This document shows, piece by piece, positions 42,346 to 60,860 of a stretch of 64,000 nucleotides of DNA. How positions within the stretch are numbered: the stretch's first letter is position 1; each line of letters opens with the position of its first letter. The notes under the pieces were generated by a model. That model had not been told where the DNA came from. It worked only from the letters and a program-made list of their open reading frames with translations, and made no database searches. This stretch comes from Macrostomum lignano. Its lineage: Eukaryota. The stretch lies in assembly GCA_002269645.1 (NCBI GenBank), contig NIVC01000494.1:248001-312000 (forward strand). Reading direction: 5' to 3'. A program made the position numbers and the translations under genes.

Positions 42346-43968
42346 AATTAAAAATCTGTAGACTATAGTTATAAGATAGAAATTTCCTTGTGATGAGTTA
42401 GTTATTCTAAGCCGAGTCAGTCAAGTTGTAACTGTTATTCTGTTAAGTGAGGCCTTCTCAACTGCGCTCTTCTGTTTCTTGTCTCTTTTGAAGCGCTTGC
42501 CTTTTGAAAAGAATGAGAGTGAAGGGTCAGTCAGTCACTCACTGTCCTTCACTCTGGCTAAAGCCCGTTCACTCGCAGAGTAAAGGAAGATAGGATGACG
42601 GTTTAATTATAATTGACGAGAGCTTGCGGAGTCGGGGTCAGTAAAGAGAGATACGAGACGCGGAGTAGGGAGGTTTGGAAGAGGGGTTGGGGTAGGTTGG
42701 ACTGCGGAGGGAGGGGGGGGGCTGATGGCCAACCAAGCTCACTGCTGCTCCAGTCCAGACTGTCAAAATTTGGCGTGGGCACGACGGGACGGGTCGTAAT
42801 AAAACGTCAAATAAATTTATACACAGTCACGGCAGACTTGGCAGAGCGGCAATTGCTATTGCTAAACGGAGCTTGAGCAGGGGGGGGGCTTGCCTTGCAA
42901 TGCAAAAGAGAATGAATGAATGAATGAAAGAGCGATCTTTCTTTTTAATAACTCGGTTCTGCTCTCTTTGTGAACAGAGCGGCAAGCGGGTGGAGAGGGT
43001 GGGTGCTGACTGCCGTTGCTGGTTGGCTAAATAACAAAAGTGGCAGCTCTCAAAGGAAAATTATACCTATGCAACAAACACCAAGGCAGCTAAGCGGATT
43101 CTTCTGACTTCTTGAAGTTGTGCCGCCGTCTTTTGTAGGTTTGGATTGGGTTGGATTGACTGCCAACGCCAAGCCTGTCTCTTTAGTCTTTACGGTTCTC
43201 AGACTGGCAGCTTAAAGCTGACTGCAGGTTTAGTTATGCCGGTGGCCCGTATATTATAATTGGTTTCCTCCTTGTGGGTGGCACAGTGGCAGGCACAAAA
43301 TCTCTCTTGTTTCGTCTGGACCCGGACCCCGGTTGGGGTTGGGAGAGTGCGCCAGCCGGGCATTGGAGGGTCCGGGGTCCCTTCTTTACCCCCACCTCAC
43401 TCCCCGGGGGTTGAGGCGGTTGAAAAAGTCACACAATCGCAAGTTAAACCTCAGCGGGGGGCATATTATCTCTACCTATAAAAATCAAAACTCTGTGTGT
43501 CTGTCTGTGTGTGGACAATTTTTAGGTTATATAGCATAGTATGAATAATAGTCCAAGTATACTTAATTGACGTTAGTACAAAACCACTACAACAAAGCTT
43601 ACAGGACACCGGTTACATTACATTTTTTACTTCAAACTCAAGACATTTAGAGAATTTAGAGAATAACAGAAATACGCTGACTAGACTAAATGTTAAATGC
43701 TTTCGAAGAATTTCTTTTCGAAGCGTTGGCTACCACTTTTATATTCTAAGCAAGCTACTAATAAAAAAACCATGCTGATACCCCCTTTGTATTTTAATAC
43801 AAAATATTCAAACGCATATTCCGAAATACAAACTACTATAAGTAGACCGTAAAGACCACAACTTTTATTAGGCATTTAATCCGCTGCTGCAGATCACTTT
43901 GTGTTTGTATTCATTAAGGGAATTAAGAAAGGATAATTAGAAACAAGAAGTCGACAATCTGAACGCGT

Positions 43969-44330
43969 AGTAGTAGGAAAGTGGTACCCTCTACCGCCAT
44001 CGCACCGGATTGGCCGGGGCACCCGGCCAATGAGGAGAGACGGCGCCCCCAAAAACGCCCACCCCGACGCCAAACCCACCCCGACCCCCAAACCCACCCC
44101 GACCCAAACCCACCACCGCCACGCACCCAATCCCGACCCCCAAACCCACCCCGACCCCGGCCAAACCCACCACCGCCACGCACCCACCCCGACCCCAAAC
44201 CGGGCCCCCAAAGACGCCCACCCGACCCCAAACCCACCACCGCCGCACCTACCTCCGACCCCAAACCGGGCCCCCTCCTGTCCTGCACCCCATCCCATAC
44301 CAAGGCCCCTTCCTGTCCAGCACACCATCC
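43969..44330 (+). repeat. Left terminal inverted repeat
   Basis: Reverse complement of ~55400-55865, with differences in internal repeat copy number. Confidence 0.9.
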
Positions 44331-44594
44331 CATACCGGAGGCCGGAGAAGGGGGTCGGGCAAGCCCAGGTTGGGGTCGGGCAAGCCGGTCGGGCAAGCCG
44401 GTCGAGCAGGCCAGATGAGGGGTTGGGCAGCTGAGTGTCTGGGTGAGTGTCCAAGGGTGAGTTAAGTGAGTGTTCAAGGGTGAGTTTTGAGATGTGAATG
44501 AGTGTCCATAGTTGAGTATCCTCTACCGCATGTGGTGATACGCAAGACAGAGTTTCAATGTGATCTTAACGGGTAGAGGGTCTGATTGCTTGGA

Positions 44595-44757
44595 ATTTCC
44601 GAGTAGAGAGGGGAAGGGATTCTATTGGTCGAGCAAGCATTTGAAGTGATTTCCGAGTAAAATGTGGAGAATGGATTCTATTGGTCGAGAGGTCCCTGAT
44701 GAACGATTTGGTTTGGACCCTGCGGGAGAAGGGCTCCAGTACCCTTTATAAATAAAG
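44595..44757 (+). promoter_or_regulatory. Putative pPolB promoter: duplicated module with inverted CCAAT boxes plus TATA
   Basis: atttccgagta at 44595 and 44649; ggattctattggtcgag at 44617 and 44673; tataaataaag at 44747, ~70 bp before the ATG at 44815. Confidence 0.45.
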
Positions 44758-44814
44758 CACCTCGGCCCCATATATTTTTTTTTTATTTTAGATTAAATTA
44801 AAAATACAACGAAA

Positions 44815-45590
44815 ATGCAAATAACTTGCGACTTTTGCGAGTCATCAGTAATCGGGGGCATTGAGGAGCACTATGCGGTATGGCCTGCGATACCAGCACT
44901 GTTTGAGTCAGATGACTCCCCAGCGATTCATTTTCAACTGATCAAGGAGGCGTTTAATGGCAGGTCCCAACTTTACCGGGCCAGTGCATGCGGCGACCCG
45001 ATGAATGTTTTGGAAAACACTCGTCAAGCTTTCATTGACTTGATCACCCAGCATCAACGTGAGCCAGGAACCGCCATCAAAGTTCAGCTGCGCCTCGGGG
45101 TCCTGATGCAGCGCATCATTAATGGTAGCTGCGCCGCCGAGAACACTGCCTGGTTTGCTGCCAAGGTCCACTCTCTTCTCCAGAGTGAGGAGGAGTACTA
45201 CTTCTCTGACGACATGCAGACTATCCTCAACCGGATAGAGAAGTAACTACGCAATGGCAGTGGCTGGGTAATCAGGACCACTCGGTGTGTTGACGTGTCA
45301 ACCGCAAGTTATTATCTACCGCATAGAGCGTCGTGCAAAAGGCCAAGAATGAGTTCAAGAAAGACTGCAACAAGCTGCTAAACAACTCCCTGTAGACCAT
45401 CGAGTATGTTCGCAAGCAAGTGGACTACGTGCTGGTTTATTCAGCAGGGAAGCCTGTGGCCCAGCCGACGTTCCGCGATCAGATGATTTTCAACGGGGAT
45501 TTAGCTCTAGTGCACATTCTCAAGACGAATGTTGTGCTCGACAGGCTAGTGTATATCGGCCAGTGCGATCTGTCTGGACACTAGCAAGCT
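44815..45590 (+). pseudogene. Collapsed protein-primed family B DNA polymerase (pPolB)
   Basis: N-terminal region ...KVQLRLGVLMQR...TAWF...ILNRIEK*LRNGSGWVI is typical of the Maverick pPolB N-terminus, with a TAA at 45244. It is joined directly to a motif-B segment AKNEFKKDCNKLLNNSL*TIEYVRKQVD...QPTF...VVLDRLVYIG. Exonuclease, motif A and motif C were not found. Confidence 0.8.
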
Positions 45591-46200
45591 CTTTTTCCCA
45601 CAAATTTTTTTTCTTTGTAAATATCTGATTTAAAACAACTATATGCATGTAAATTTAATACGAACATACTATATTTTGAATAATAATAAATACAAGCTTT
45701 ACTCTATGATATCTAATACGCAGAAATAGAGAAAAATGCTCTTTCACAAAAATATTTTTGCTATAATTAGTCATTTTTTGTGCACAGCTCTGGGGTAAAA
45801 TCCCCATTGAAATGTATGTATTTTATCCACAAGTATGCAAGTTTTCGTCCAGTGATTAAAAGTATGCAATACGGCGTGAATTTTTCGACAAAATGCGTCA
45901 ATTTTCATGCACAGGTTCGGGTACAAATCCCTATTGAAATACATGTATTTTGTGCACAAGTATGCAAGTTTTCGTGCACAGTGTTAAAAAGTATGCAAAG
46001 TGTTGAGGTTTTTTGTGCACACATTCGGGTAAAAATTCCCATTGAAATGTATGTATTTTGTGCAAACATGCATGCTTTTTCGCGCACAACAGAGGCTAGA
46101 AACGCTAAATCCGCAGAAACTGGTGGGGGTGGGCTGTTATTTTTTTTTTTCAAGCAGGTGTTTGGCATAAGAAAATGATAGGTACTAGAAATTTGGTAAA

Positions 46201-47419
46201 ATGAAAAAGAAAAAGGCAATTTCAAACCTTCTGCCAGGTATTTATTTTGACTGCAGTAGACCGGGCAGCTATGGCGGCTATCAGGCATTAAAACGAGAGT
46301 TGCACAAACAGCACGGACCCAAGTTTAGTGTAGGGCAGGTATGTATATACGATATACTTCTAAACCAATTATTTTTTAGAAAATTCCAGCTTAGGTTTTT
46401 AGTTTTATCCACTAGCTAGCAATTTCCAGTTTTTACAATTAAAGGTAAAAACGTGGCTCCAAGACCAAGATGTCTACACACTGCATAGAGATAAACGCAA
46501 AAACTTTCGTCGAGCACCGATTGTGGTGCGGGGCATGGATGACCAGTGGGAACTGGACCTGGTTGAAATGCTACCGTTTGCCAAGTACAATGGCGGCGTA
46601 CGATATATTTTATGCTGCATTGATGTGCTCAGCAAGTTTGCCTGGGCTCAGCCGGTGCGCCGCAAGACAGCCGAGGAGGTTGCAGCCGGATTCGAAGCGA
46701 TCCTAAATCGAGCTCACCCTCGATGCCCACGAGCAGTTCGGACCGACCGTGGAAAAGAGTTTTGTAACACCCAGTTCCGAGCCTTCTGCGTAAACCACAA
46801 AATTCATGCATTCACATCAAGTAGTGACCAGAAATGCGCAGTCATTGAGAGATGGAACCGCACACTGAAATCCCGAATGTGGCGGTACTTCCGTCACAAG
46901 TCAACATTAACCTGGACCGATGTGCTTCAACCCTTAGCAAAGGCATACAACCAGAGTATTCATCGGAGTATTCAAAGCCGACCAGTTGATGTCGACAAGT
47001 CAAACGAGATGGAAATTTGGCACCGGCTTTACGATGGGAAGCTTCCTGAGACTCGTGAAAAGGTCTCCAGACCAAAGTTCAAGGCAGGAATGATGGTGCG
47101 AATCTCTCTTCGCAATCTGGCCAACCCATTCACCAAGGGATACACAAGGGGATGGAGTGAGGAAGTATTTGAAGTCAAGTCCCTCCACCCCAAGCATTAT
47201 CCATACATGTACACTCTGATCGATGCCCGAGGTGAAGAGTTGGAAGGCAAGTTTTACGAGCCGGAAATGCAGCAAGTGACAGGAAACAAGAAGCTGTGGA
47301 TCATCGACAAGGTTCTCAACATTAAGAAGCTGAAGAGTGGAAAGATTCGGTATTTGGTTCAGTGGCGCGATTCAGAAAAACCCAGTTGGATTGACGAAAA
47401 AGACTTAAGAAAAATATGA
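46201..47419 (+). CDS. RVE-family (DDE) integrase with C-terminal chromodomain-like region; exons 46201-46338 and 46445-47419, ~370 aa
   Basis: IYFDCSRPGSYGG...|VKTWLQDQDVYTLH; WELDLVEM, TDRGKEF and VIERWNRTLK catalytic motifs; C-terminal IDKVL...RYLVQWRDSEKPSWI. Confidence 0.9.
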
Positions 47420-48198
47420 AAAGGCAAAGATTTCAGGTAATGTCCGGCCCCGATGATGACCCGGCCAACTTTACTGCTGAGCTGCTGCATCCTGTGCTGC
47501 TGGATTCTGCTTTGGACTATGAGTTGGGTCTGCTTGGAATCAGTTTTATCAACTGCATCTACACGATCCCTCATCCATTGTCGCTATATTATCAGCTTGA
47601 GGGTTCAATGCAATGTGCTGAAATTCCAGCTGGGCGCTACAATGACTTGAATGAGCTGATTGATGCAGTAAATGCTTTACTGATTGTAAAAGATTTTGAT
47701 GAGTCTGGAATTGGCGAAACACCTATAAATGTGCATCTAATTAAATTTACCCTTGATTCAGTTAGCCATTATGTATACTATCAAATGGCTGGGATCTGTG
47801 AGAGATTTATGTTTCCAGAAAACAGCCAGATGGGGAAAATCTTTGGTGCTGCGCAGACAACCTATAGCGAGCAGGCAGGATGCTTTGAACGACCTGGCAT
47901 GAACCCGGCCTGGAATACGGATTTGCTGCTTGTTGAGTGCGATCAGATTAGCCCGCGCTGTATTGGAAATCAGTTTACTCCAGCACTGCAGACTTTGAAT
48001 ATTGGTGGTCTTTTGCAGGATCACCGGTCGGAACTCATCTATAAGAATAAGCTGTTCTTCCCAATAGCAGCAAACCACCGCTTAACACACATGCAAATAC
48101 GGCTACGACCGATCAACTGTATCGAATCTATCCGATTACTCTTTGGACCCACAGTCTTGACTTTTGAGCTGCGTGAGTCATGGACATTCGACAAGTGA
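47416..48198 (+). CDS. Probable minor capsid (penton-like) protein, 260 aa
   Basis: ANFTAELLHPVLLDSALDYELGLLGI resembles the Polinton mCP N-terminus; position between integrase and MCP. Confidence 0.65.
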   Translation: MKRQRFQVMSGPDDDPANFTAELLHPVLLDSALDYELGLLGISFINCIYTIPHPLSLYYQLEGSMQCAEIPAGRYNDLNELIDAVNALLIVKDFDESGIGETPINVHLIKFTLDSVSHYVYYQMAGICERFMFPENSQMGKIFGAAQTTYSEQAGCFERPGMNPAWNTDLLLVECDQISPRCIGNQFTPALQTLNIGGLLQDHRSELIYKNKLFFPIAANHRLTHMQIRLRPINCIESIRLLFGPTVLTFELRESWTFDK

Positions 48199-48443
48199 CC
48201 GAGTTTTATCGAGGCAGTTGCTTCAAACTTCCTCATGGGCACGGATATCCCACATCGCTGCTATCTCGACTGCCCCCTGAGACTCATGAAAATGCAGTTC
48301 TCCTTTCCCGCATACCACCTCCATCGCAGAAAAAACATAAGAAAACGCCAAAAATCAAACCAAAGAAGAGCAAGCCAGTGCCCACAAAAAAGCGCAAGAT
48401 ACCGTTAAAAACAGTCAACCGAGTGCTCGATTCACTCTCATAA
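48180..48443 (+). CDS. Small basic protein (87 aa), candidate virion core/DNA-condensing protein
   Basis: Lys/Pro-rich C-half; fills the gap exactly and overlaps the MCP start (TAATG). Confidence 0.45.
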   Translation: MDIRQVTEFYRGSCFKLPHGHGYPTSLLSRLPPETHENAVLLSRIPPPSQKKHKKTPKIKPKKSKPVPTKKRKIPLKTVNRVLDSLS

Positions 48444-49713
48444 TGTATCGGACAAATCCACGGCTCAATCTGTTTGAGCCAATGACGCATGAAATTGGAG
48501 TGGATAGGTCTCACTTCACGGACTTTCATCCCATCGGCAGTCTCACGACTCCTGATGCACCGATTGAATTCGACTGCCACGCCTCCTCTGAGGACTACAC
48601 CGATCTGCACGCCACAGTGCTGCAAGTCACTTGCCGGATAACTCGTGTGATAAACAATGCAGAGCTGACTAATGAAGATGATGCCCATGTCGGACTATCG
48701 AATCTCCCGCTTGCCAGCCTGTTTCGTGATGTCACTGTAAAACTCAACCAGCGGGTTGTGAGTGGTGGGGACCAGCTCTACCCATATCGAGCAATGCTTC
48801 AAGTGCTGACCAGCAGCAATGCCAACCAGCTTCAAGAACTGGCGGCCGCAGGTTATTATCCAGACACCGCTGGAGAGAGTGACACCATTGGGGAGCAAAA
48901 TCATGGATTCACAAATCGTGCGAGATTGCATGAGGCTTCTGCTGTTGTGCAATATGCCGGCCCGTTGTTTTCAGACATTTTCTCAATCCGGCAGTATCTG
49001 CTAAACCAAATCAGCCTGCAGGTCAAATTGACCCGGCATTGCAGCGCTTTTTCGTTGATGGTACCCAATAATGGAGTTCAATATCGTATTGAAGTCGACA
49101 ATGCTATTCTGCTTTTGAGGCGTCTCCGAGTAAACCCAACAGTGGCTCTCGCACATGAACAGGGGCTCTCACAGCGTAATGCTCTCTACCACTTTGATAG
49201 AAGAGAGCTTCAGACATTCACATTTTCTGTTGGGACAAGAAACAAGAGTCTCGATTCAATCACGCATGGTCAGCTGCCAAAATTTGTGCTCCTTGGAATG
49301 GTCAGCCAGACTGCTTTCAATGGATCTCTGCACCACAACCCGTTTTGGTTCCAAGCATTTGGGTTGAATAGTTTAAGCCTGTTTGTCAATGGAGAGCCAA
49401 TTACTGGGCAGCCCATAGAACCACAGCAGCAGCACTCATCCGAATTTTTGCAGTTTGCCCGCAGTCTCGGTGGAAAATATTGCATAGCTTTGATGAATTT
49501 CGAAATAGTGCCTATCTGCTTGCGTTTGACCTTAGTCCAAGTGGCGATGAAGTAGGCAGCTGGTTTGGTCATAGGCAGGGTCAACTACGACTGGATATTC
49601 GCTTTTCCAACGCTCTCGCACAGCCAGTCACACTCATCTGCTTGTGCGTGTATGATTCATGCATGGAAATCACTAAAGAGAGGGATGTGCTGCTGGATTA
49701 TCGCAGAGCATGA
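48443..49713 (+). CDS. Major capsid protein (double jelly-roll), one frameshift near 49485
   Basis: FHPIGSL...PIEFDCHASSEDYTDL..TVLQVTCRI, SLFRDVTVKLN, YPYRA and LPKFVLLGMV. The C-terminus continues in another frame as SFDEFRNSAYLLAFDLSP...GQLRLDIRF...DSCMEITKERDVLLDY. Confidence 0.88.
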
Positions 49714-50183
49714 ATTCCGAAGAGTTGGAAGCGTTCATTTCTCGCTGCCCCACATCTGTGCGGGATGCCTATTGCGGAAATTTTACAGTTGGAACAGTGA
49801 CACCATTTTTCGATTCAACCTGCCGACCCTGCTGCTTCATTTTGTATGAGCCATGGAATGATGAGTGCGGTCACTGGATTGCTGGAGTAGTAACAAGTAA
49901 AGTGCATTGTGAAATTTTCAACTCTTTAGGAGGCTTGAGTAAAAATATGAAGAGCTGGTTAAAGAAAACTAAACCGACGCGGATGGTGCTGCAATGGAAT
50001 ACGGTCCCTGTTCAGCCCAGTTCGTCAACTCTATGCGGCTGGTATTGCATTTTTTACTTGATCCATCGACTACATAAGAGAATGTCATATAATGCCTTGT
50101 TCATCAAGGTTTTGCACCCGGCAGCTGTGGCTCAAAACGATGCAATCATACTCAGACTCAAAAATCAGTTGCAAGGTGTTTGA
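49710..50183 (+). CDS. Adenain-like cysteine protease, 157 aa
   Basis: GHWIAG (His), IFNSLG and VQPSSSTLCGWYCIFYL (Gln...Cys). Confidence 0.88.
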   Translation: MNSEELEAFISRCPTSVRDAYCGNFTVGTVTPFFDSTCRPCCFILYEPWNDECGHWIAGVVTSKVHCEIFNSLGGLSKNMKSWLKKTKPTRMVLQWNTVPVQPSSSTLCGWYCIFYLIHRLHKRMSYNALFIKVLHPAAVAQNDAIILRLKNQLQGV

Positions 50184-50798
50184 TTCCAGACTGCGGATGG
50201 GAGGCTGCATGATGGTTTCGGGCCCTTCTCGAGCGGGAAAATCAACATTCTGTTTGCGGTTGCTGTCCCAACGACTGCTTTGTTCGACCAACCTCCCAAG
50301 CGGATGATTTGGTATCACGGATGCCCGCAGCCGGAACTCCACGCGACTCTGCGGCGGCTAGGAGTGCAAGTATGTGAAGGATTATCGAATTTGGATCTGC
50401 AGCCCCATGACCTGATTGTGATTGACGATTTACTGGATGAAGCAGCTGCAAGTCGAGAGCTACGACATCTGTTCACCCGTGAGGCCCACCACAAGCCCTG
50501 CTTTGTCATTCTCATCACGCAAAATCTATTTTTCAAAGGCAGAGAGTGGCGCACAATTAGCATAAATTGCACCTACATTGTGTTGTTCAACAACCCCAGA
50601 GACGCCTCTGCGGTCCAAGCTTTAAGTCAGCAATGCTTTCCCAAACGGCGCACTCTGCTAGTAGAACTGATGGATCGATTGGTGCGAGATGGAGATCAGC
50701 GCTATCTGCTGCTTGATTTTCACCCCGCTTCGCCCCATGAACTGCGCCTGAGAGCCAATTTTCTCCCCGATGAGGCCCCGCAGCGAGTTTATCTATAA
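50140..50798 (+). CDS. A32/FtsK-like packaging ATPase, one frameshift near 50275
   Basis: Walker A GPSRAGKS (frame from ATG 50140); Walker B LIVIDD and FTREAHH...ITQNLF...RTISINCTYIVLFNNPRD (frame from 50280). Confidence 0.9.
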
Positions 50799-50828
50799 GA
50801 ATGGCTCAGTATCTGCACTGAGTTAAAC

Positions 50829-51161
50829 ATGGATAAACACATTGCACTAATAACTGTCTTTTGTGAGGGCACTATATCCTTGCGTCGCTGCATACTTACC
50901 TATGCAAATAAAAGCACCATTTGCTTTTTGGTTGAGTGTATTATAAATCTACTAGCAGGAAAAGTTTGTTGTGAAGATAGCTTGAAGCGGAGACTCAGGC
51001 GATATCGAAATACTCTCCGGCTTGTTGCACAAAGCAAAAGTGTGAAAGAGGCTCGGCGCAATCTCTCACACCCGCATATCCTTCGTTGTCTTCCTCTGAT
51101 TCTCACCTGTATAAAAAGACATGTACAAGGAAATGATACTGGTACCCCGGTTGCAGTATGA
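50829..51161 (+). CDS. Conserved small Polinton-type ORF (110 aa), function unknown
   Basis: ICFLVECIINLLAGKV...LKRRLRRYRNTLR resembles an ORF pattern I associate with Mavericks; located in the co-oriented block. Confidence 0.55.
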   Translation: MDKHIALITVFCEGTISLRRCILTYANKSTICFLVECIINLLAGKVCCEDSLKRRLRRYRNTLRLVAQSKSVKEARRNLSHPHILRCLPLILTCIKRHVQGNDTGTPVAV

Positions 51162-51717
51162 GGCACTTGTGAATCAGAGGGGCATGGAGACAGTCTGTGA
51201 ACCCGAGCTAGAGGCGGAAAAACAGTTGCGCAAGATTAGGGACGAGCGTTGCGTGCAGCAGCTGCAGGCAAGTGCGACCCAAGAACAGCCTCCAGTAATT
51301 CACAAAGAACCGCAGTGGAAGGAGGTTTTATATCTGACGGTGAATCAGAAATGGCATCATCGTCTGCAGGCATTGATTAGCTTCATAACCGTAAAGTGCA
51401 AGTCGATTAGCATAGATGATACGTATGAAGTTTCTGTCAATGGTAAACCGTTGTACAACTCAAATATCGTGGACCTGCTGTATTTCATAGTTAAAGATAC
51501 GTACTCTAAGTATCTTCAGCCACCGAATGGGATTAATGAGTTTGTTACGTGTCTTCAAGAAAACCACGTGCCTCTGTCTGCAGTTGGTCTGAACACTACA
51601 AAATTGCTGGAAAAGCCTCGGGAAGAAAAGTCCAGTCCTAAAAAACCTCGACTGCAAGGCTATAAGAAGACTCAGTCTCAGAAAGGATACGGCAAGTGGA
51701 TCAAGTGGCCAAGATGA
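51121..51717 (+). CDS. Conserved Polinton-type ORF (198 aa), function unknown
   Basis: VNGKPLYNSNIVDLL...PPNGINEFVTCLQENHVP pattern; the stop overlaps the next ATG. Confidence 0.55.
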   Translation: MYKEMILVPRLQYEALVNQRGMETVCEPELEAEKQLRKIRDERCVQQLQASATQEQPPVIHKEPQWKEVLYLTVNQKWHHRLQALISFITVKCKSISIDDTYEVSVNGKPLYNSNIVDLLYFIVKDTYSKYLQPPNGINEFVTCLQENHVPLSAVGLNTTKLLEKPREEKSSPKKPRLQGYKKTQSQKGYGKWIKWPR

Positions 51718-52229
51718 TTGTCATTGATTTTGAAGGATTTCCGCACCTCTACAAAACAGAGGACTTTGTGATTAAGGAAATTGCATGGGTTGAGTTTGCA
51801 TGCGGTCAAACGACGGCTCATTACTATTGCTACCAGCCGCCGCACAGCTTTGAGCTCTTTGATCGAGGACAGCGACGAACCTGCTACTGGCTCACCAATA
51901 AGCGGCACGGTCTAGACTGGGACAGGAGTGGGTTCCGACCCTACTCTTGTCTCTGGAGCGATATCTCCCACTTGCAAGGCCCGATATTCAGCAAGGGGGA
52001 TGTCAAGTGCCAGTTCCTGTCGCGTCTGCTGCTACAGCCTGTCTACGACCTCGCACACCTGGCCTTTCCGAGTGCCTCGAAGTACGTGCTACCCTGCGCC
52101 CTGGCCAAGGTGGCGCTGTACGCTGATTGGCTGCGGCCTCGCGGCTACGGGTCTATAAAAGTAGCGATCTGCAGCAGGCACTGGCATTTCTCTCGATTGT
52201 CTGGTTTTGTCTCGCATAGAGACGCCTAA
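51714..52229 (+). CDS. DEDD/DnaQ-like 3'-5' exonuclease
   Basis: MIVIDFEGF (ExoI DxE), FVIKEIA, HGLDW, IFSKG and CALAKV. Confidence 0.65.
   Translation: MIVIDFEGFPHLYKTEDFVIKEIAWVEFACGQTTAHYYCYQPPHSFELFDRGQRRTCYWLTNKRHGLDWDRSGFRPYSCLWSDISHLQGPIFSKGDVKCQFLSRLLLQPVYDLAHLAFPSASKYVLPCALAKVALYADWLRPRGYGSIKVAICSRHWHFSRLSGFVSHRDA
52154..52202 (+). promoter_or_regulatory. TATA box plus initiator-like leader
   Basis: TATAAAAG at 52154-52161; CATT with A at 52186 (32 nt downstream). The leader aggcactggcatttctctcgattgtct is repeated exactly at 53063-53089. Confidence 0.5.
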
Positions 52230-53093
52230 CCGCAGTCACTTCTGTGAAACTTGTCTCTGCCTGGCTGAAAGCTTGTAATGAGTGAGTAGGCTGGGTTGGA
52301 GGGTAATAGTGGATCGGGAGGGGCTGTGGGTAGCTGTATAGGAAGGCAGGCCTATACCTGTACCAAGGTGCTCTGACGGTATCCCTCAGGCGCCCTCTGA
52401 GCGTACAGCCAGCGACCCTATTAAAGCTGGAGTGTGCCAGAACCAGGACTGAGTCTGAGCAGGACGGGACCGTTGGCACGGTCACAATAGAAATGGCGGG
52501 TTGGCGAAGCAAAGGGTGAAACAGTCCCGGCGATTAGCCCTCCTGCCGCTTCAAAGATAAGAGACTGTCTGTTGGCAAGAGTACCCGGGGTCTAGTTGGG
52601 GGGGGAGGCTCCTTCGGGTTGCCACGGCCGTGGGGGGCGGTCAAATGACCGGCATTGGCTTAACTAACCCAGGAGTAGGCACGGGCTTCCCTGAATGGTT
52701 CACTCAACCCCCTCTGGCCCCGGGGAGGTTTTTGATTTGTACCCGGGGTGGTGGGCGGTCGGCCCCAGCATGGTTGCCACGGCTCTAGGCCTTCGGGCCA
52801 TCTCTAATAGGCTTTGGGGGCCTTCTAACCTGGTTTTTTGGGCACGGGCTTCCTGACTGGTTCGTCGAACCGCTGTCACTGTCCCCCGGGGAGGTTTGGT
52901 TTTTCTGATACTGCCCTGTACAGTCCTCTATAGTCTAATTTGGCTTTTAGTGTACATGAGTACACTCCCAATCTGGAATCTAAATTATCTCTAGTGGCGT
53001 AAGAGCCTTTTTACTTAGGCTGAGGCGCCGGAAGTACTTATCATAGTCATAGTCATAGTCATAGGCACTGGCATTTCTCTCGATTGTCTAAAG

Positions 53094-53744
53094 ATGGCCG
53101 CAACAATTCGCGTAACAAACATCGTGACAGGAGCCGACCTGGCGACCCGGGTGGGTCTGCCACAACTAGCGAATTTCCTGACTCTTCATCTGCCTCAGTA
53201 TCACACAATCCGCCATCGCCTGGTTCATCCTCGAACACTGGCTGTGGTGATGAAGAGCGGGCAGCATCGAGTAACCGCGCTGGTGTATCCGACCGGACAA
53301 GTGTCTGTCTGTGGAGCCAAAAGCATGGAGGAAGCTCTCGTAGAGACAGAGAAGATTGTGAAGCTGTGTGCAGACTTCTTGCGATTGACCAGTCTGCCCC
53401 AGATTCGCATCAAGACTATTACCTCTGTGACGACCTTTCCCGCGGGTCGGCATCCACTCCGGTTGGGGGAAGTCAAGTCTAAATGGCCGCATCGGGCCAC
53501 CTACGAGCCGGAAATGTTTAACGGACTTGTGCTCGAGTTTACTGCTTCTGTAAAGTTGATTTTGTTTCATTCATATCGCTGTATAATAGCTGGTGCTCGC
53601 AGCGTGGTTGAGGCTCAGACTGCAGCTGATGCCCTCTCCCGCATTTTGCATGCAGACCAAGCATCCGAACCTACTTTGCTGGACTCTGACTCAGCTCCTC
53701 TACGGCATAACAGTAGTAGTGAGATCTGCCTATGCACCGAGTAA
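53094..53744 (+). CDS. Divergent TATA-binding protein (TBP)-like protein, 216 aa
   Basis: Two TBP-like repeats: VTNIVTGADL...AVVMK...TALVYPTGQVSVCGAKS and ...TYEPEMFNGLVL...KLILFHSYRCIIAGARS. Compare TBP QNIVAT, TALIFASGKMVVTGAKS and SYEPELFPGLIY...LLIFVSGKIVLTGAK. Confidence 0.82.
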   Translation: MAATIRVTNIVTGADLATRVGLPQLANFLTLHLPQYHTIRHRLVHPRTLAVVMKSGQHRVTALVYPTGQVSVCGAKSMEEALVETEKIVKLCADFLRLTSLPQIRIKTITSVTTFPAGRHPLRLGEVKSKWPHRATYEPEMFNGLVLEFTASVKLILFHSYRCIIAGARSVVEAQTAADALSRILHADQASEPTLLDSDSAPLRHNSSSEICLCTE

Positions 53745-54130
53745 TAATAATAATAATAATAATAATATTTTTGCTGTAACTTTACTTCTGTATTTCTTTT
53801 GTGTACAAAAGATAAGAAAAAATAAACGCGAATGCAACTATGTTTGTGCAACAATGCTTACAAAAATGAAACGTTTTTTTTTTGTTTATTTTATTGGCAG
53901 GTCCATGGATTGCTAAGCATAAAATTACATGTTAAAAGCTCCTATTAGCACAAAAAAAGTTTATGAAGAATGGAAGGGCAGTATTAAGGCCTGTCACGTG
54001 TATTTACAAAACAGGTATTATCGCAAGAAATTAAAGCATCATGGGGCAATATTATAGCCAGTATTGACAAAGCAGTATATACAACAGTGCATGATCAGTA
54101 CTATGGTTCAAAACTATATTAAAAAAAAAG

Positions 54131-54826
54131 TTACTTGACGAAATGACCAGTTGTCGCTTCATGCATTGCGCGTCGCTTCATTGGTGGCTGGTGGCATGAA
54201 GGCTGTTGGTTCTTCTCAGCTGTTGATGGCTCTTCCAGAGTTTCGGATGCAAATCTCTTTCTAAATTCAGCCTGAACTGCCTGGAAAGCCTCCCAGTGGT
54301 CGTCCCACTCTGCCGGCTGCCTGTCAGGTACTTGTATAAGTTGGTCGAGTGTAAGCCTTGCTGCCCATGCTGCACACTCTTCAGGCTCCGTAGGGTGGTA
54401 TCCCATCCACCATGGATCGCCGATCGGTGGCTTGACCGGAGGTTCTCGCTTGTCAATTTTGTCTAGGACCCAATGCTTTTGAGCCCAGACTTCGCGCCAA
54501 AGTTTTGTAGGAAGCGGTAAGGCGTGCCTTAGGTGCACCGGCGGTCCGAGTACAGTTGGAAGGCGCCAGAGTGTGATTACGCCATTTTGCACAACCACTT
54601 GCCTGTTGCCACCCAGAAGGCATTGCGCATCGATACACTTTCTTGCAAACTCTTCCAGTCGTTCCTTCAGGCTGCCCAAGTGGCAAAACTGGTGGACGGT
54701 GAGCTCCATGCCAGGCAGACCTGGTCGATACTCTTCATCAAATTTGTACCACTTTCTGATGCTGATGCACTTCGAGTGCGACCTGACGCCGATTCGAAAT
54801 CTGTTCGATAATGTCTTGAAGTTCAT
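54131..54826 (-). CDS. PC4 (Sub1/p15)-like ssDNA-binding/coactivator domain protein, ~231 aa
   Basis: N-terminus FKTLSNRFRIGV...ISIRKWYKFDEEYRPGLPGMELTVHQFCHL fits the PC4 pattern (vdIRe.Y....kPgkKGIsLt.eQw..L). TATATAA ~45 nt upstream of the ATG on the minus strand. Confidence 0.65.
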   Translation of the reverse strand: MNFKTLSNRFRIGVRSHSKCISIRKWYKFDEEYRPGLPGMELTVHQFCHLGSLKERLEEFARKCIDAQCLLGGNRQVVVQNGVITLWRLPTVLGPPVHLRHALPLPTKLWREVWAQKHWVLDKIDKREPPVKPPIGDPWWMGYHPTEPEECAAWAARLTLDQLIQVPDRQPAEWDDHWEAFQAVQAEFRKRFASETLEEPSTAEKNQQPSCHQPPMKRRAMHEATTGHFVK

Positions 54827-55399
54827 TTTGTTCACTGTGAGCTTTCCTTCCGGCTGTGTGCGAGATTATATACGACGAGAGTTGGTAAGTAACACCAGCT
54901 CCCGCTCCATCGCAATAACCAATCCGAACCCCGAATCCAACCCCACACAACAGCCCTCTCGCAGGAACTCTCGGCAAATCAGGAGCCCTTCCGGGGACCA
55001 CTCAGCCATTTAGAAACCAGCTCCTGTTCCATAGCAATAACTAATCCGAACCCCAAATCCAACCCCCACACAGCAGCCCTTTCGCAGGAACTCGGGCCTC
55101 AACAAAGTCTCAGCCATCAACGTAACAGGAGGTGGCGGGACCTTCTTGCGGCCCTCTGGCCGCCAAGAAGTAGCGTTCTAGGTCTAACGACCTCACGCTG
55201 TACCCGCCACAGCAAGATACAGTACAACCAAAGCATGGAATGAGGGTTTTGCCTTGGCTAGCTTTAAAGGCGGTAAGTGAGACAGGTAATAAGACTTGGG
55301 TTTAGGAATTAGGAGGGGGGAATTGGTTTTGGTTAGGGTACAGGATAGAAGGACCTTGCTACATGGGATGGGGCAAGGCGTAGGATAGGAGGGGGCCTT

Positions 55400-55865
55400 G
55401 GTATGGGATGCATGGGGTGCAGGACAGGAGGGGGTCTTGGTATGGGATGCACGGGGTGCAGGACAGGAGGGGTGTAGGACAGGAGGGGGTCTTGGTATGG
55501 GATGCATGGGGTGCAGGACAGGAGGGGGTCTTGGTATGGGATGCACGGGGTGCAGGACAGGAGGGGGTCTTGGTATGAGATGCACGGGGTGCAGGACAGG
55601 AGGGGTCTTGGTATGGGATGCACGGGGTGCAGGACAGGAGGGGTGTAGGACAGGAGGGGGCCTGGTTTGGGGTCGGGGTGGGTGCGTGGGTTTGGGGTCG
55701 GGATTGGGTGCGTGGCGGTGGTGGGTTTGGGGTCGGGGTGGGTTTGGGGGTCGGGGTGGGTTTGGCGTCGTGGTGGGCGTCTTCGGGGCGCCCTCTCCCC
55801 TCATTGGCCGGGTGCCCCGGCCAATCCCGTGCGATGGCGGTAGAGGGTACCACTTTCCTACTACT
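55400..55865 (-). repeat. Right terminal inverted repeat with expanded internal tandem units
   Basis: Multiple cttggtatgggatgcacggggtgcaggacaggagggggt units, versus about 1-2 in the left TIR. Confidence 0.88.
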
Positions 55866-57114
55866 ACGCGTATTAACCACCTGCGTGAGTTTAAGCACAC
55901 AACAGAATTTTATGCAACGGCTGCTCTTGATGCAAGCAAATGTTTAGTTTTCAATGGACATTTATTTATCAAAGGTAACATAAAAGTGAAACAAATTAAA
56001 CAAACAGTCAATTTTTTTCTAATTTTATTTTCGACACAAAAATACATTTAGATCAAATGGTTTTTATTGTATATGCATAAGAATAATTAACACATACCTG
56101 CTCTATGTATTACCTTCTTAGCTAATCGGCAGACATTGAAAGGTGAACACACCAAGGCGGCAACAAACTTCAAACTAAATTAGCCGGGAAAAGCAAAGTA
56201 AGACTTGTAAGACAAAGCAATTGCTCAGCTAGTGCAGCCAGTAGAAAAAGCGCATATAGCACGTAACTAAGCGCATGAAAGCTAGAGAGAGAGATGAGAC
56301 CGCGCCTCACGGGTCAGCAGATTAAGGAATGAGCTAAATCTATAATTAGCCAATGAATCAACAACTAAAATTTTGATTTCTCACTATATTATTAATAAAG
56401 CAAAATGGTAGAAACACTCAAAGCTTAGTAATGATTACATCCGATTGGAATGGCCAAAATGCCTTGAATAAATTTTTACATATTATAAGAATAATTAAAG
56501 GAACAAAACTGTGTATTTAAATAAATAAAATAGAATAAAACAAACTAATTACAGGTGCAAAGCAAGCAAAAATGTCAGACAACAACACAATTCCCAAAGA
56601 AGAGTCAAAATCAACACAGCGATAATTTTTCTCCACAGAATCAAACACAGACAGTTGATTGGTTGCCTCAGATTCGGACACGCGGCACAAGTTGAGAGGC
56701 AACAAGTCGTACAGCAAAGAAAAAAAACAGAAACTGCAACAACAGTTCCACTAATCAAGGTAATTATTAGTAAGTTTTTTTTATAAGTCCGATTCTGCAA
56801 ACAAGGAAAGAAAAGACACACGTTACGTAACTTTCATTATATTGAAGTTGTACCTTCTTGTATATACTACTTACTTGCTTAGTAGATCGAATTTCTTTGG
56901 CTTTAACCGTCTATTTATACTACTTAGTTCAACGAGTAATAAGTAGGGTGAACGATTACAATTCTTGAAACAGTTGACGCTGTTAAGCAGGCATGAACTG
57001 GATGTAAATATTAAATAACTAATTATTGTGGCCATATATTAATTAGTAGAAAAAAAATTACACACTGAGCTGCTATTACAATCAATATAGTCATAATTAT
57101 GAATAGTTATTAAA

Positions 57115-60100
57115 TCACTGATTGTGATGATTGTGTCGATGACTTCGGCTGGAGCTTCTTCGCCTAGATTTGTGATGCGAGGATTTCCGTTTGTGCCGCT
57201 TGTGATGGTTTTGGCGGCGACTGTGGTGGCGATCGTGCTGCTGGTGATGGTGACGCTTGCTGCGTTTCTGTGGGAAAAATTTAATGGAAAAATATCACAA
57301 CGGTAAAGCAGCTCAGCGCTTAACGCGTCTGACTGTTGCGCGTCAAGTCAGTGGGGCCACATTCAAGAAATTCGTGCACGGCATTTAGCGGATGCGCTGC
57401 ATAAGCGCGCAGTTGCATAAGCGCAGCAGTTGCATAAGCGCGCAGTTGCATTAGAGCACATTTGCATAAGCGCCAGTTGCATAAGCGCCAGTTGCATAAG
57501 CGCCAGTTGCATAAGCGCAGCAGTTGCATAAGCGCGCAGAGTAATAAGCCCGCAGTTGCATAAGCGCGCAGTGTGATAAGTGCACAGCTGCATAAGCGCA
57601 GCAGTTGCATAAGCGCGCAGTTGAATTAGAGCACATTTGCATAAGCGCAAATTTGCAAAAGCGCGCAGTGTAATAAGCACGCATTTGCATAAGCGCTAGT
57701 TGCATAAGCGCTAGTTGCATAAGCGCAAAATTGCAATAAACAATATAAACAATGTAGCAAATTTCAAGTTACCTTAGCGGTTTCCCGGTCGCTGCTACTA
57801 CTGATTTCGTCACTGTCGCTGTTGCAGTCTTCTTTGGCGCTATTGTGAGCACTGTGCGCTGCTGCGGCGGAAGCGGCGGCGGCGGTGGCCGCGGCTGCGG
57901 CGGGCCCGGAGCAGCATTCCACCCAGTCGTATTCAGACGAGGAAGGCGACGAAGAGGACTGGTCTTGGCTTGCTTTCCGCTTCAAGCTGGACGATTGTTG
58001 ATGCCGCTGCTGCTGCTGAGGCTCGGAGTTCGAAGCGGCTGGCAGCTGATACGACGGCGGCGGAGTCCGTGCCGACGCTCTAGCATCAACTGGCGCAGAT
58101 GCCGACGCCACGACTGACTTAGTAGGCTGCGGAGGCGTCAACTGCATCACGAGTTGTTGCTTTTGCTGTTGCTGCTGCTGCTGCAGAGGAACCGGGACAC
58201 AGCTGAACTTGTTGCCCTCAACCTTGTGTATTTTCAATCGAATACAAGTGGACGACGGCGACGCGGCGGCAGAGGCGGACGAATGAGACGGCGACTGGGA
58301 AGGACTGCCGTAGCTAACTAATAACTCACTGTTGCCAGACTGAGCTGCTGCAGCCTGAGCTGTCGAATCGCTTGTAGAACCGTTGTTGCTCTTTGAAGAA
58401 TAGCAACTAGAGTTGACATTGCGAGCGGACATGAACTGTAACAGGTCGGTTTTGCTGCCACTACTGGTGCTGCTACCGCTGCTAACTGATCCGTTGCCAT
58501 TGCAATTGCCATTGCTGGAGTTATTGCGCAGGACAAACACTGGACGCGGTGTAAACATCGGTCCAGACGATGTTGTCGACGTTATAGTGGACTGAATCGG
58601 ACTAGCGGCCGATGACACCAGCACGCGAATAGTGGAAGTGGACGGAATCGATCGAACGGCAGCCGTCTGGCTAGTCGGTATCGATGACACCGGTATCGGC
58701 GGAGCAGCAGCAATAGGCGGCGTCGGATGAGGCGCATCCACAGTGGACACGGGCCTGGCGCCGTTGCTACTATTGCTGTTATTGTTGACAAGAGCTGACA
58801 GGTCAGTCCGCCTGTAGAACAGAATATACGGGCAAGAGTTCAGCACCCGAGTCTCGCTGATTCGTTCAACCGAGGCATCGTTCAAGCACCACCAGGCTTC
58901 GTTGCGTTTAGCGTAGCAATAATAGTGCCCAAACTTGGTGCTGGCGCCGTGGTGTATGACCACGGAGTACAGGTCGTATTGCACTGGCCGGCCTCGCTTA
59001 GACATGAACGGACGCAGGTCCAGACTAAGCGGAAACTCAACAAACCGGCTAATCTTGCTGTTGTGACCCCATTGGAATCGGTTCAACTGGATAGTTAAGA
59101 TTGGCGGGCCAACAGCGATGCTGAAACTCTTCATAGCAGTCACTTTTGTGCGACATTTCTCGCATTTGTAAGCGTTGGAGTCTTTCAACAGATCGGCGGA
59201 TACAAACCGCTGCAGACAGTCGATCAAGTTGTTGCTGCTCTGGATGCACAGGCTTAGATCCATGAAATCGTCGAATGTCTGCGACTGGGCGCCGCATTTT
59301 GAGCAGAGTACGGACGATTTGAGCTTGCCACAGAATAGCACTCGGATTGGATTGGATGCGCGCCTGTTGGTTGCAAAAAAGCAGTAAATTTTATAAATTG
59401 CTCAGGTACCTAACGGTATTACTGCTCCCGCAACTTATCAGCAGGTATAGCTCGTATTATCGGGACACTGCTACTCATCACACAGGTACTTTTGACGGCC
59501 ACAACTCGGGTACTTTTGACAGGACACAGCTACTCATCAACCGGTATGTTTGACTGGACACACAGCTACTCATCAACCGGTATGTTTGGCAGGACACACA
59601 GCAACTCATCAACCGGTATGTTTGGTAGAACACACAGCTACTCATCAACCGGTATGTTTGACTGGACACACAGCTACTCATCAACCGGTATGTTTGACTG
59701 GACACACAGCTACTCATCAACCGGTATGTTTGACTGGACACACAGCTACTCATCAACCGGCATGTTTGGCAGGACACACAGCAACTCATCAACCGGTATG
59801 TTTGGTAGAACACACAGCTACTCATCAACCGGTATGTTTGGTAGAACACACAGCTACTCATCAACCGGTATGTTTGGCAGGACACACAGCTACTCATCAA
59901 CCGGTATGTTTGACAGGACACAGCTACTCATCAACCGGTATGTTTGGTAGAACACACAGCTACTGATCAACCGGAATGTTTGACTGGACACACAGCTACT
60001 CATCAACCGGTATGTTTGACAGGACACAGCTACTCATCAACCGGTATGTTTGGTAGAACACACAGGTACTCATCAACCGGTATGTTTGGTAGAACACACA

Positions 60101-60860
60101 GCTACTCATCAACCGGTACGTTTGACAGGACACAGCTACTCATCAACCGGTCCTTTGGTGGTTAATAGTTGAAAAAAACGGGACGAGACAATGATCAATT
60201 TAGTAGAGATTTTAAATGAAATGAAACAAAATTAGACACAAAAGAACCTACTTCAAGTAATATAAATGTCACAAAATGTCTAAAAAAGGACACAGCGGAC
60301 TCTTACTTAGACTCGGCGCCCGTATAACCGTGCAAACAATTGCTCTCCATATAGTCCAATAGGCCGCGCAAAAACTCGTGCGCATCCTCTTGCCGATTAA
60401 GGCGCATTGTAGGCGATATAGCGCTCAATCTGTTCATGAAAGCGCGCGGATAACAGGCCGACCCGGGGCCGCAGCTGTAGCGCTTATAATAGCGCACAAA
60501 TTCGCAAACTGCGCACCATTTGTCAACGCTAGGCACAATTCTACAAGTTGACACGTGACTGCTCAATACGAAATTGATAAAAGCCGGCGTGTGCAGCAGA
60601 GACTGGAGCACAGAGATCATATAGCAGTAGTTGCCTTCGTTAGTGAAGCCAAACGGTAGACCAGTGTAGCTGTGCTGCAGCTGTACCAGCTTGTAGGAGA
60701 ACAGCTTTGGTTGCTGCTGCTGCTGCTGCTGCAGATGCTGCTGCCTGTCTCCATTCAATAATCTGTGATGCCCGTAGCCGTTCGAAGTTGAAGCGATCGA
60801 TCCGTTGCTATTAGAGCCATTCTGCTGCTGCTGCTGCTGCTGCAGGATGGGTGCCAGCAT
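57115..60860 (-). CDS. USP36/USP42-like ubiquitin-specific protease; exons 60860-60307, 59363-57773, 57267-57115
   Basis: Cys box GFTNEGNYCYMISVLQSL; QEDAHEFLRGLLD; Zn-finger C..C; His box YSVVIHHGASTKFGHYYCY...WWCLNDASV. Phase-consistent GT-AG introns; Ser-rich tail and His/Arg/Lys-rich last exon. The start codon is uncertain. Confidence 0.88.
57400..57730. repeat. Intronic repeat on gcataagcgc core
   Basis: Tandem variants. Confidence 0.85.
59500..60150. repeat. 36-bp intronic minisatellite (cacagctactcatcaaccggtatgtttgactggaca)
   Basis: Tandem array. Confidence 0.93.

Follow-up and report, generated by a model that had tools for sequence, protein, structure and literature searches.

The 64,000-nucleotide stretch of Macrostomum lignano DNA analyzed here (the window) contains a Polinton/Maverick element that carries a gene for a TATA-binding protein (TBP)-like protein, and the interpretation we favor, with moderate confidence and from sequence comparison, is that this is a Polinton TBP with altered specificity that recruits host TFIIB and RNA polymerase II (Pol II) to the late genes of the element. 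Altered sequence specificity was among the possibilities raised in a sequence-only reading of the gene, and it is upheld by substitutions that are fixed among aligned proteins 29-37% identical to each other, by purifying selection and by a non-canonical box that precedes the cassette genes.

The element was identified as a Polinton because of its terminal inverted repeats (TIRs), target duplication, integrase, protease, ATPase and capsid-like ORFs, PC4-like ORF and polymerase remnant. It is 11.9 kb long and is flanked by a 6-bp target duplication (43963-43968 and 55866-55871), and the hallmarks of Polintons (TIRs, 6-bp target duplication, AG..CT ends) are all present. The features below refer to sister copies of the same family (A) and to a second family (B), both of which are delineated later.

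43969..55865, Polinton/Maverick (adintovirus-like) element, ends AGTAGT..ACTACT
43969..44167, plus strand, left TIR, 93% identical to the right one over 210 nt
55664..55865, minus strand, right TIR
44815..45590, plus strand, internally deleted remnant of a protein-primed DNA polymerase (two short tblastn matches with family B pPolB)
46535..47419, plus strand, integrase (rve, E 6e-14) with a chromo-like tail; additional N-terminal sequence is found upstream
47416..48198, plus strand, minor capsid (penton-like) gene, named by position, no family match
start at 48180, small basic ORF
48443..49555, plus strand, major capsid-like gene, named by position, frame disturbed near the end in the window copy
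49710..50183, plus strand, cysteine protease (weak Peptidase_C48 match, E 0.0085)
50140..50798, plus strand, packaging ATPase (visible Walker A and homology), frame broken in the window copy
50829..51717, plus strand, two conserved unnamed cassette ORFs of 110 and 198 aa
51714..52229, plus strand, DEDD-like ORF, 293 aa in sister copies, truncated here by an insertion
52154..52161, plus strand, canonical TATAAAAG, from which the TBP start is 53 nt away in all seven sister copies checked and 940 nt away here
52203..53089, non-coding high-copy insertion of 887 bp that has a 27-bp duplication and a tail of TCATAG repeats
53094..53744, plus strand, TBP-like ORF, 216 aa here and 199 aa in most sister copies
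54131..54826, minus strand, PC4-like ORF (PF02229, E 5.8e-5, under the curated cut-off)

We take the gene at 47416..48198 to be penton-like from the usual Polinton gene order, and the gene at 48443..49555 is presumed to encode the major capsid protein from its position in that order; the latter ORF had no Pfam match in the window element or in the sister copies searched. The protein-primed DNA polymerase domain (PF03175) was found in sister and family B copies. A TFIIB profile run over the genome gave 15 matches on seven contigs, none of them at any Polinton position examined, and Rfam gave no matches within 43900-55900. The N-terminus of the family A integrase is interrupted in frame, as judged by eye, by an AT-rich stretch bounded by GT..AG (46339-46444), which is absent in family B; the contigs that cover it are unspliced. 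Just outside the element, on the minus strand at 57764-60860, lies a host ubiquitin-specific protease gene (Pfam UCH) with at least two exons.

The TBP-like ORF matches the Pfam family PF00352 in two stretches (E 5.8e-19; 68.2 bits against a curated cut-off of 22.9), which indicates two TBP repeats. The AlphaFold model of the 216-aa product (mean pLDDT 89.7) predicts a saddle fold, with residues 31-60 as the weakest segment of the family A model (pLDDT 62-77). Structural matching of this model placed TBPs on top (Z 20.0, rmsd 2.4 Å, 174 residues aligned), and TBP structures were also the best Foldseek matches (E 7e-14). The ORF extends 17 codons beyond the usual stop, and its last 17 residues are peculiar to the window copy. 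It is 26% identical to the host TBP and 23% identical, over 104 aa, to the host TRF2; the host TBP (three loci, canonical) and the host TRF2 (three loci), represented in these comparisons by L049 and L055, respectively, are genes distinct from the Polinton TBP. The ORF is cargo of the Polinton and not a host retrocopy.

The window copy of the element is damaged. The 887-bp insertion, which is present in one of 30 family A loci, separates the TBP ORF from its TATA box and cuts the DEDD-like gene, and deletions or disruptions affect the frames of the polymerase, capsid and ATPase genes, with the qualification that some of these breaks may be assembly errors. The inserted repeat has 313 candidates genome-wide, with copies 93-99% identical and no Rfam match, and is very deep in one sequencing run; it is a young mobile sequence. 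Contigs from four of the 24 listed runs, the RNA origin of which is a guess, contained no spliced joints, the only joint being one that skips the 887-bp insertion, along with deletions. The window copy probably does not supply functional TBP protein, and the argument developed here rests on the family rather than on this copy.

Genome-wide, 150 of 194 candidate matches to the TBP gene were scored: 26 loci, 83-100% identical over at least 156 residues, constitute family A, and most of the remaining scored matches, at 35-40%, constitute family B. The TBPs of the two families are about 37% identical. The DEDD-like ORF precedes the TBP gene in all nine family B loci fetched, and an ATPase homolog is found in eight of these nine. 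The dN/dS ratio is 0.18-0.33 in each of the 13 family B pairs computed (of 36 pairs) and about 0.43 when pooled over the distinct variants in ten family A copies; the TBP gene is under purifying selection.

The DEDD-like gene overlaps the region encoding the TBP N-lobe in the -1 frame; the overlap measures 389 nt in nine of the family A loci analysed and 323-335 nt in family B. Under recoding, an open run of this kind has a probability of 0.005-0.03. In both families, the overlap yields a Ser-rich tail of the DEDD-like protein, and synonymous change in it is about one third lower than in the DEDD core. Dual coding was considered as the cause of the asymmetry between the TBP lobes but set aside: pN exceeds pS in the -1 tail, and the lobe contrast in family B is mostly due to recombination. 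Pairs of family B copies are 94-100% identical up to the inter-lobe linker, beyond which identity falls to 67-83% for the C-lobe and 45-75% for the polymerase arm next to it; the recombination junction, at about nt 330 of the TBP gene, recurs in four pairs (L031, L034, L039, L042, L044 and L045). At one locus (L079, G000:C592:149300-159299), two deletion derivatives of family A, each with a polymerase stub, the integrase and the PC4-like ORF, form a large inverted pair. In four public gene models (P0010-P0013), the Polinton TBP is fused with exons of the host or with the DEDD-like ORF; these models look like annotation or frameshift artefacts.

Beyond this genome, ENA, Logan and JGI data yielded six more relatives, which lie on short contigs that give no gene context. 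A profile search of 1.84 billion representatives yielded eight matches below 1e-30, of which seven are of the Polinton type and one is a tandem ordinary TBP. The Polinton-type TBPs form a single branch in the trees (support 98 in one and 100/99 in another, from which 25 of 70 rows were omitted and to which one TRF2 was added), and five small TBPs from metagenomes adjoin this branch (96/87), in a region where long branches meet. According to the AU test, a sister relationship of the Polinton group to the host TBP is not rejected (p 0.39), and neither is one to the host TRF2 (p 0.57), the likelihood of which is above that of the quick free tree; the Polinton group and TRF2 are apart in both free trees. 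The small metagenomic TBPs (P0036, P0037, P0059, P0099, P0119, L137 and L138; 170-193 aa) keep the first intercalating Phe and share with the Polinton group a Pro after the second Phe or a His after the fourth. They possibly represent an intermediate state. For the closest outside relatives, no locus that would provide gene context was found in viral or metagenome contigs. On the 2.5-kb metagenome contig that carries one small TBP (L138), a neighboring ORF with a VIDAQGF motif was considered as a DEDD-like homolog and rejected because its score was no better than those of shuffled sequences.

For the DNA-facing residues of canonical TBP, we use the yeast numbering, anchored on the host TBP, which matches every label but one conservative change. 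The ORF has Phe at positions 28, 95, 115, 142, 149 and 158 and nowhere else; with no Phe in the interval from F28 to F95, there is no register that supplies the first intercalating Phe, as the by-eye alignment had suggested for the N-terminal repeat. The other assignments of that alignment are confirmed as well: Y65 occupies the position of the second Phe (ALVYPTG), the first Asn is retained as N9 (TNIV), the second is replaced by T108 (KTIT vs QNIV), and the C-lobe keeps its Phe pair as F142 (EMFNG) and F158 (ILFHS). The alignments give two of the canonical four intercalating Phe rather than all four, and the symmetry of the two Asn of canonical TBP is lost, with T108 present in all 17 aligned rows, which are not independent given that eight come from the M. 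lignano genome and three are near-duplicates.

When the host TBP is included in the alignment, Leu49 falls on the first-Phe position, reproducing the register initially proposed (HPRTLAV vs PKRFAAV). When only Polinton proteins are aligned, VHPRTL pairs with VWPRVL, with His in four rows and Trp in 13. W47 of the family B model (pLDDT 90.4, without a host row) lies in a loop and the next strand begins three residues on, like F144 in the C-lobe; H45 in the family A model is likewise three residues before the next strand, the offset of F142 in the C-lobe. Given the Polinton-only alignment and the strand offset in both models, the first-Phe position probably holds His45 (Trp47 in family B) rather than Leu49, and we infer that an aromatic ring still fills this site.

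The changes at DNA-contact residues had been described as asymmetric, which is accurate for the Phe pattern, but the C-lobe is non-canonical too: the equivalents of yeast Q158, N159, V161, P191, R196, V203 and T215 are all changed, and F99, F116, V122 and T124 complete the set of altered canonical positions. At the level of sequence, then, both lobes are rewired and the asymmetry is confined to the Phe pattern. In all 17 rows, drawn from both Polinton families and from metagenomic relatives, the substitutions T8, Y65, S/T71, C73, K107, T108, T/S110 and K154 are fixed, N9, V11, T61, L63, E138, E140, F142 and F158 are retained, and the P191 equivalent is missing; the R196 equivalent is also lost. 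The acidic C-lobe stirrup, with the TFIIB-binding glutamates E138 and E140, is intact in every row as far as sequence can tell, which answers the earlier question of its conservation, whereas the N-stirrup is shortened or rebuilt. The basic patch on helix 2 of the N-lobe is absent in the window protein (L82, E86, K87, K90, D94) and mostly lost in family A, whereas in family B it is mostly basic.

Upstream of the cassette genes, at matching places in the two families, lies a sense-strand box that reads YATAAGAA in family A and YTTAAGAA in family B. The boxes of the window element, all on the plus strand, are as follows.

46166..46173, CATAAGAA, before the integrase
47321..47328, ATTAAGAA, before the penton-like gene
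47404..47411, CTTAAGAA, before the penton-like gene, 12 nt to Met1 and 36 nt to Met9
48040..48047, TATAAGAA, before the small basic ORF at 48180
48336..48343, CATAAGAA, before the major capsid-like gene
50073..50080, CATAAGAG, before the ATPase
50794..50801, TATAAGAA, before the 110-aa ORF
51661..51668, TATAAGAA, before the DEDD-like ORF

In the window element, TAAGAA occurs eight times on the sense strand and never on the antisense strand; the sense to antisense ratio of the box is 8:0 in family A and 10:2, 12:1 and 9:1 in family B. In three family A copies, 7/10, 6/9 and 6/9 genes have the core WTAAGA 25-150 nt upstream, and in three family B elements 8/10, 8/10 and 7/10 genes do, compared with 1.4-2.1 genes for random anchors (p at most 0.0012). 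An unbiased scan of 6-mers returned the box core as the top 6-mer in all five elements scanned. Under a codon-preserving null, in which the upstream protein was kept and its codons were redrawn (for the family A penton window, shuffling took the place of recoding, and the anchor of the family A integrase is a codon close to the gene start but not at it), the expectation is 1.45-1.85 genes and the observed count was reached in none of 1500 draws for each of three elements. As controls, we used six Polintons of a PLA2-integrase group that gave no TBP match; a TBP profile gave no match under E 0.09 in nine copies of this type, some of them covered in part. The box precedes 1/11, 2/9, 3/12, 4/14, 2/14 and 2/11 of their ORFs (p 0.64, 0.29, 0.20, 0.04, 0.49 and 0.47), so that it is not enriched in five of the six, where the ORF sets are automatic and may include flanking host ORFs. 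In these AT-rich PLA2-integrase Polintons (L111-L128), many ORFs start at (TA)TAAAAATG or TAAAAATG abutting the ATG, a motif unlike the box; the poxvirus late motif TAAAT resembles it.

Gene starts lie at least 35 nt past the box, with the single exception of the penton Met1 at 12 nt, and several boxes are followed by a stray ATG 9-17 nt downstream. This spacing and the stray ATGs fit the geometry of a TATA element better than that of an initiator, since a transcription start about 30 nt downstream would skip these ATGs. No box is suitably placed ahead of the protease gene or the 198-aa ORF. The TBP gene itself stands behind the canonical TATAAAAG, at -53, in seven of seven family A sisters, and behind the box in family B.

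In the mechanism that we propose, the Polinton TBP would bind its own YWTAAGAA box and thereby switch on the integrase, capsid and packaging genes. In a TATA complex, the 5' half of the box is read by the C-lobe of TBP and the 3' half by the N-lobe, and the requirement for T at position 1 has been ascribed to Pro191 (PMC1636458). Projected onto the box, the C-lobe Phe pair would make the upstream kink, loss of the P191 equivalent may permit the frequent C at box position 1, and His/Trp together with Tyr could form a modified downstream contact. In canonical TBP, Val122 contacts the base at position 6, and the Ser/Thr found at this position in the Polinton proteins would suit the fixed G at box position 6. 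Two glutamates of TBP bind TFIIB (PMC7221094), and their equivalents, E138 and E140, would dock host TFIIB, the host protein being the presumed partner because no TFIIB gene was found in the elements. The canonical TATA box in front of the family A TBP gene suggests an early-to-late cascade, in which host TBP would read TATAAAAG and make the viral TBP first, after which the viral TBP would drive the genes with a box; the box in front of the family B TBP gene suggests feedback.

Several considerations count against this mechanism. The association between TBP and box comprises three lineages in one genome, one of the six control elements reached p 0.04, two cassette genes lack a suitably placed box, and the R196 equivalent and, in family A, most of the basic patch of helix 2 are gone. 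The cavity of wild-type TBP accommodates G at position 6 (PMC1636458), and the structure 1qn5 is such a complex, so that host TBP could read the three family A TATAAGAA sites unaided. Furthermore, ORF24, the TBP of a herpesvirus, requires all four Phe (PMC12529657) and a Phe-to-Tyr change affects TATA binding (PMC7221094), so that the Polinton TBP may bind weakly.

This weakness is the starting point of the best surviving alternative, also raised at the outset as a half-functional decoy saddle, which we consider unlikely: a weak DNA binder would soak up host TFIIB or regulators of TBP, and host TBP/TFIID would read the boxes. The loss of the first Phe, the change of the second Phe to Tyr and of the second Asn to Thr, the loss of the R196 equivalent and the invariance of the TFIIB glutamates are all compatible with such a decoy, as is the tolerance of host TBP for G6 (PMC1636458). 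However, at least eight new DNA-facing residues are invariant across about 30% identity rather than drifting, and a non-binding surface would have no need of them; the family B boxes (CTTAAGAA) depart from TATA at three positions, and family A is without the basic patch that regulators bind (PMC7221094). Marginally less probable still is a repressor or timer, whereby the protein would bind the box in a weakly bent, unproductive complex and keep the virion genes quiet while the element is integrated. It draws on the same box and selection evidence as the altered-specificity reading, a weaker downstream kink could result from the altered N-lobe pair, and the box before the family B TBP gene suits feedback of either sign; but a repressor does not need the invariant TFIIB-binding glutamates, and the non-canonical box of family B leaves host TBP little to be blocked from.

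We regard as improbable the possibility that the TAAG core is an initiator for the polymerase of a helper virus, as in baculovirus late promoters, with the TBP gene having another role. TAAG, the baculovirus late motif, is contained in every box (PMC3828166), and integrated virophages bear promoter motifs tied to helper viruses (PMC8547959), but conservation spans eight positions and is family-specific at position 2, the spacing to gene starts and the stray ATGs just downstream disagree with an initiator, and there is no enrichment in five of six TBP-less Polintons. Finally, a neutrally decaying retrocopy of host TBP or TRF2 within the transposon, the outcome that the sequence-only reading had itself named as fatal to its proposal, is highly improbable despite the damage to the window copy and the AU tests that leave both host sisterhoods unrejected, given the low identity to host TBP, dN/dS well under 1, at least 150 genome matches in two families and the single Polinton-type branch with relatives in ENA, Logan and JGI; neutral decay is largely refuted by dN/dS, and the gene may have an old host origin.

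Returning to the altered-specificity TBP, a broader proposal can be made tentatively, as a possibility that in our judgment falls somewhat short of probable. Polintons may contain the smallest known private promoter code, consisting of a bare TBP core with a rewritten saddle, a family-specific box and unmodified host TFIIB, with natural orthogonal TBP-promoter pairs as the result; in family B, recurrent recombination at the inter-lobe linker would shuffle the lobes, so that the N-lobe stays with the genes that have a box while the C-lobe accompanies the polymerase.

Some of these components are already in print, namely a TBP-like gene in an element with an adintovirus-like PolB and herpesvirus TBPs with private boxes. 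The former appears as a 'TBP' label in a MELD virus map (Starrett 2021; PMC8502044), the legend of which gives no residues, promoter or mechanism. In the literature searched, which included few subscription journals, no Polinton TBP-box pair was found; the supplements of Starrett 2021 and of PMC7221094 could list such proteins. New here are a table of the DNA-facing residues, the placement of His/Trp in the register, controls that preserve codons or come from TBP-less Polintons, and the recombination between the lobes of family B.

With cellular TBP, the Polinton TBP shares the two-lobe saddle and the equivalents of N69, V71, T112, L114, F190, F207, E186 and E188. The analogy to TRF2/TLF offered in the sequence-only reading holds loosely, in that TRF2/TBPL1 is also a TBP paralog with lost intercalating Phe; it fails in detail, since the host TRF2 has both Asn and only the last Phe whereas the Polinton TBP has two Phe, one Asn and no long low-complexity tail, and identity is low over a short alignment. 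The TBPs of large dsDNA viruses (PMC7221094) are likewise virus-borne two-lobe proteins with a diverged N-lobe regulator surface, but most are accompanied by a viral TFIIB and the two glutamates vary (about 40% kept at one), whereas in the Polinton TBP both are invariant, with neither a TFIIB found in the element nor a viral RNA polymerase. The closest functional parallel is KSHV ORF24, the vTBP of beta- and gamma-herpesviruses with its TATTWAA late box, which resembles the Polinton TBP in having a more polar DNA face, a non-canonical late-gene box and, presumably, the use of host Pol II; ORF24, however, keeps and needs all four Phe, has lost the acidic TFIIB pair, carries additional domains at both termini and has five viral partners (PMC12529657), in contrast to the bare core, two Phe plus Tyr and His/Trp, and both glutamates of the Polinton TBP. 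The residue and domain pattern of the herpesvirus vTBPs (ORF24/BcRF1/UL87) is absent in the Polinton TBP, and a non-canonical box before genes is what they share. If the proposed mechanism is correct, a one-protein late switch would bear on the timing of capsid gene expression in Polintons, which have no RNA polymerase of their own; a TBP that works with His/Trp and Tyr in place of two Phe would probe which parts of the canonical saddle are required to bend DNA; natural altered-specificity TBP-promoter pairs would be on offer; and the Polinton TBP would represent another viral hijack of Pol II, in which TFIIB is retained, in contrast to KSHV, which seems to do without it.
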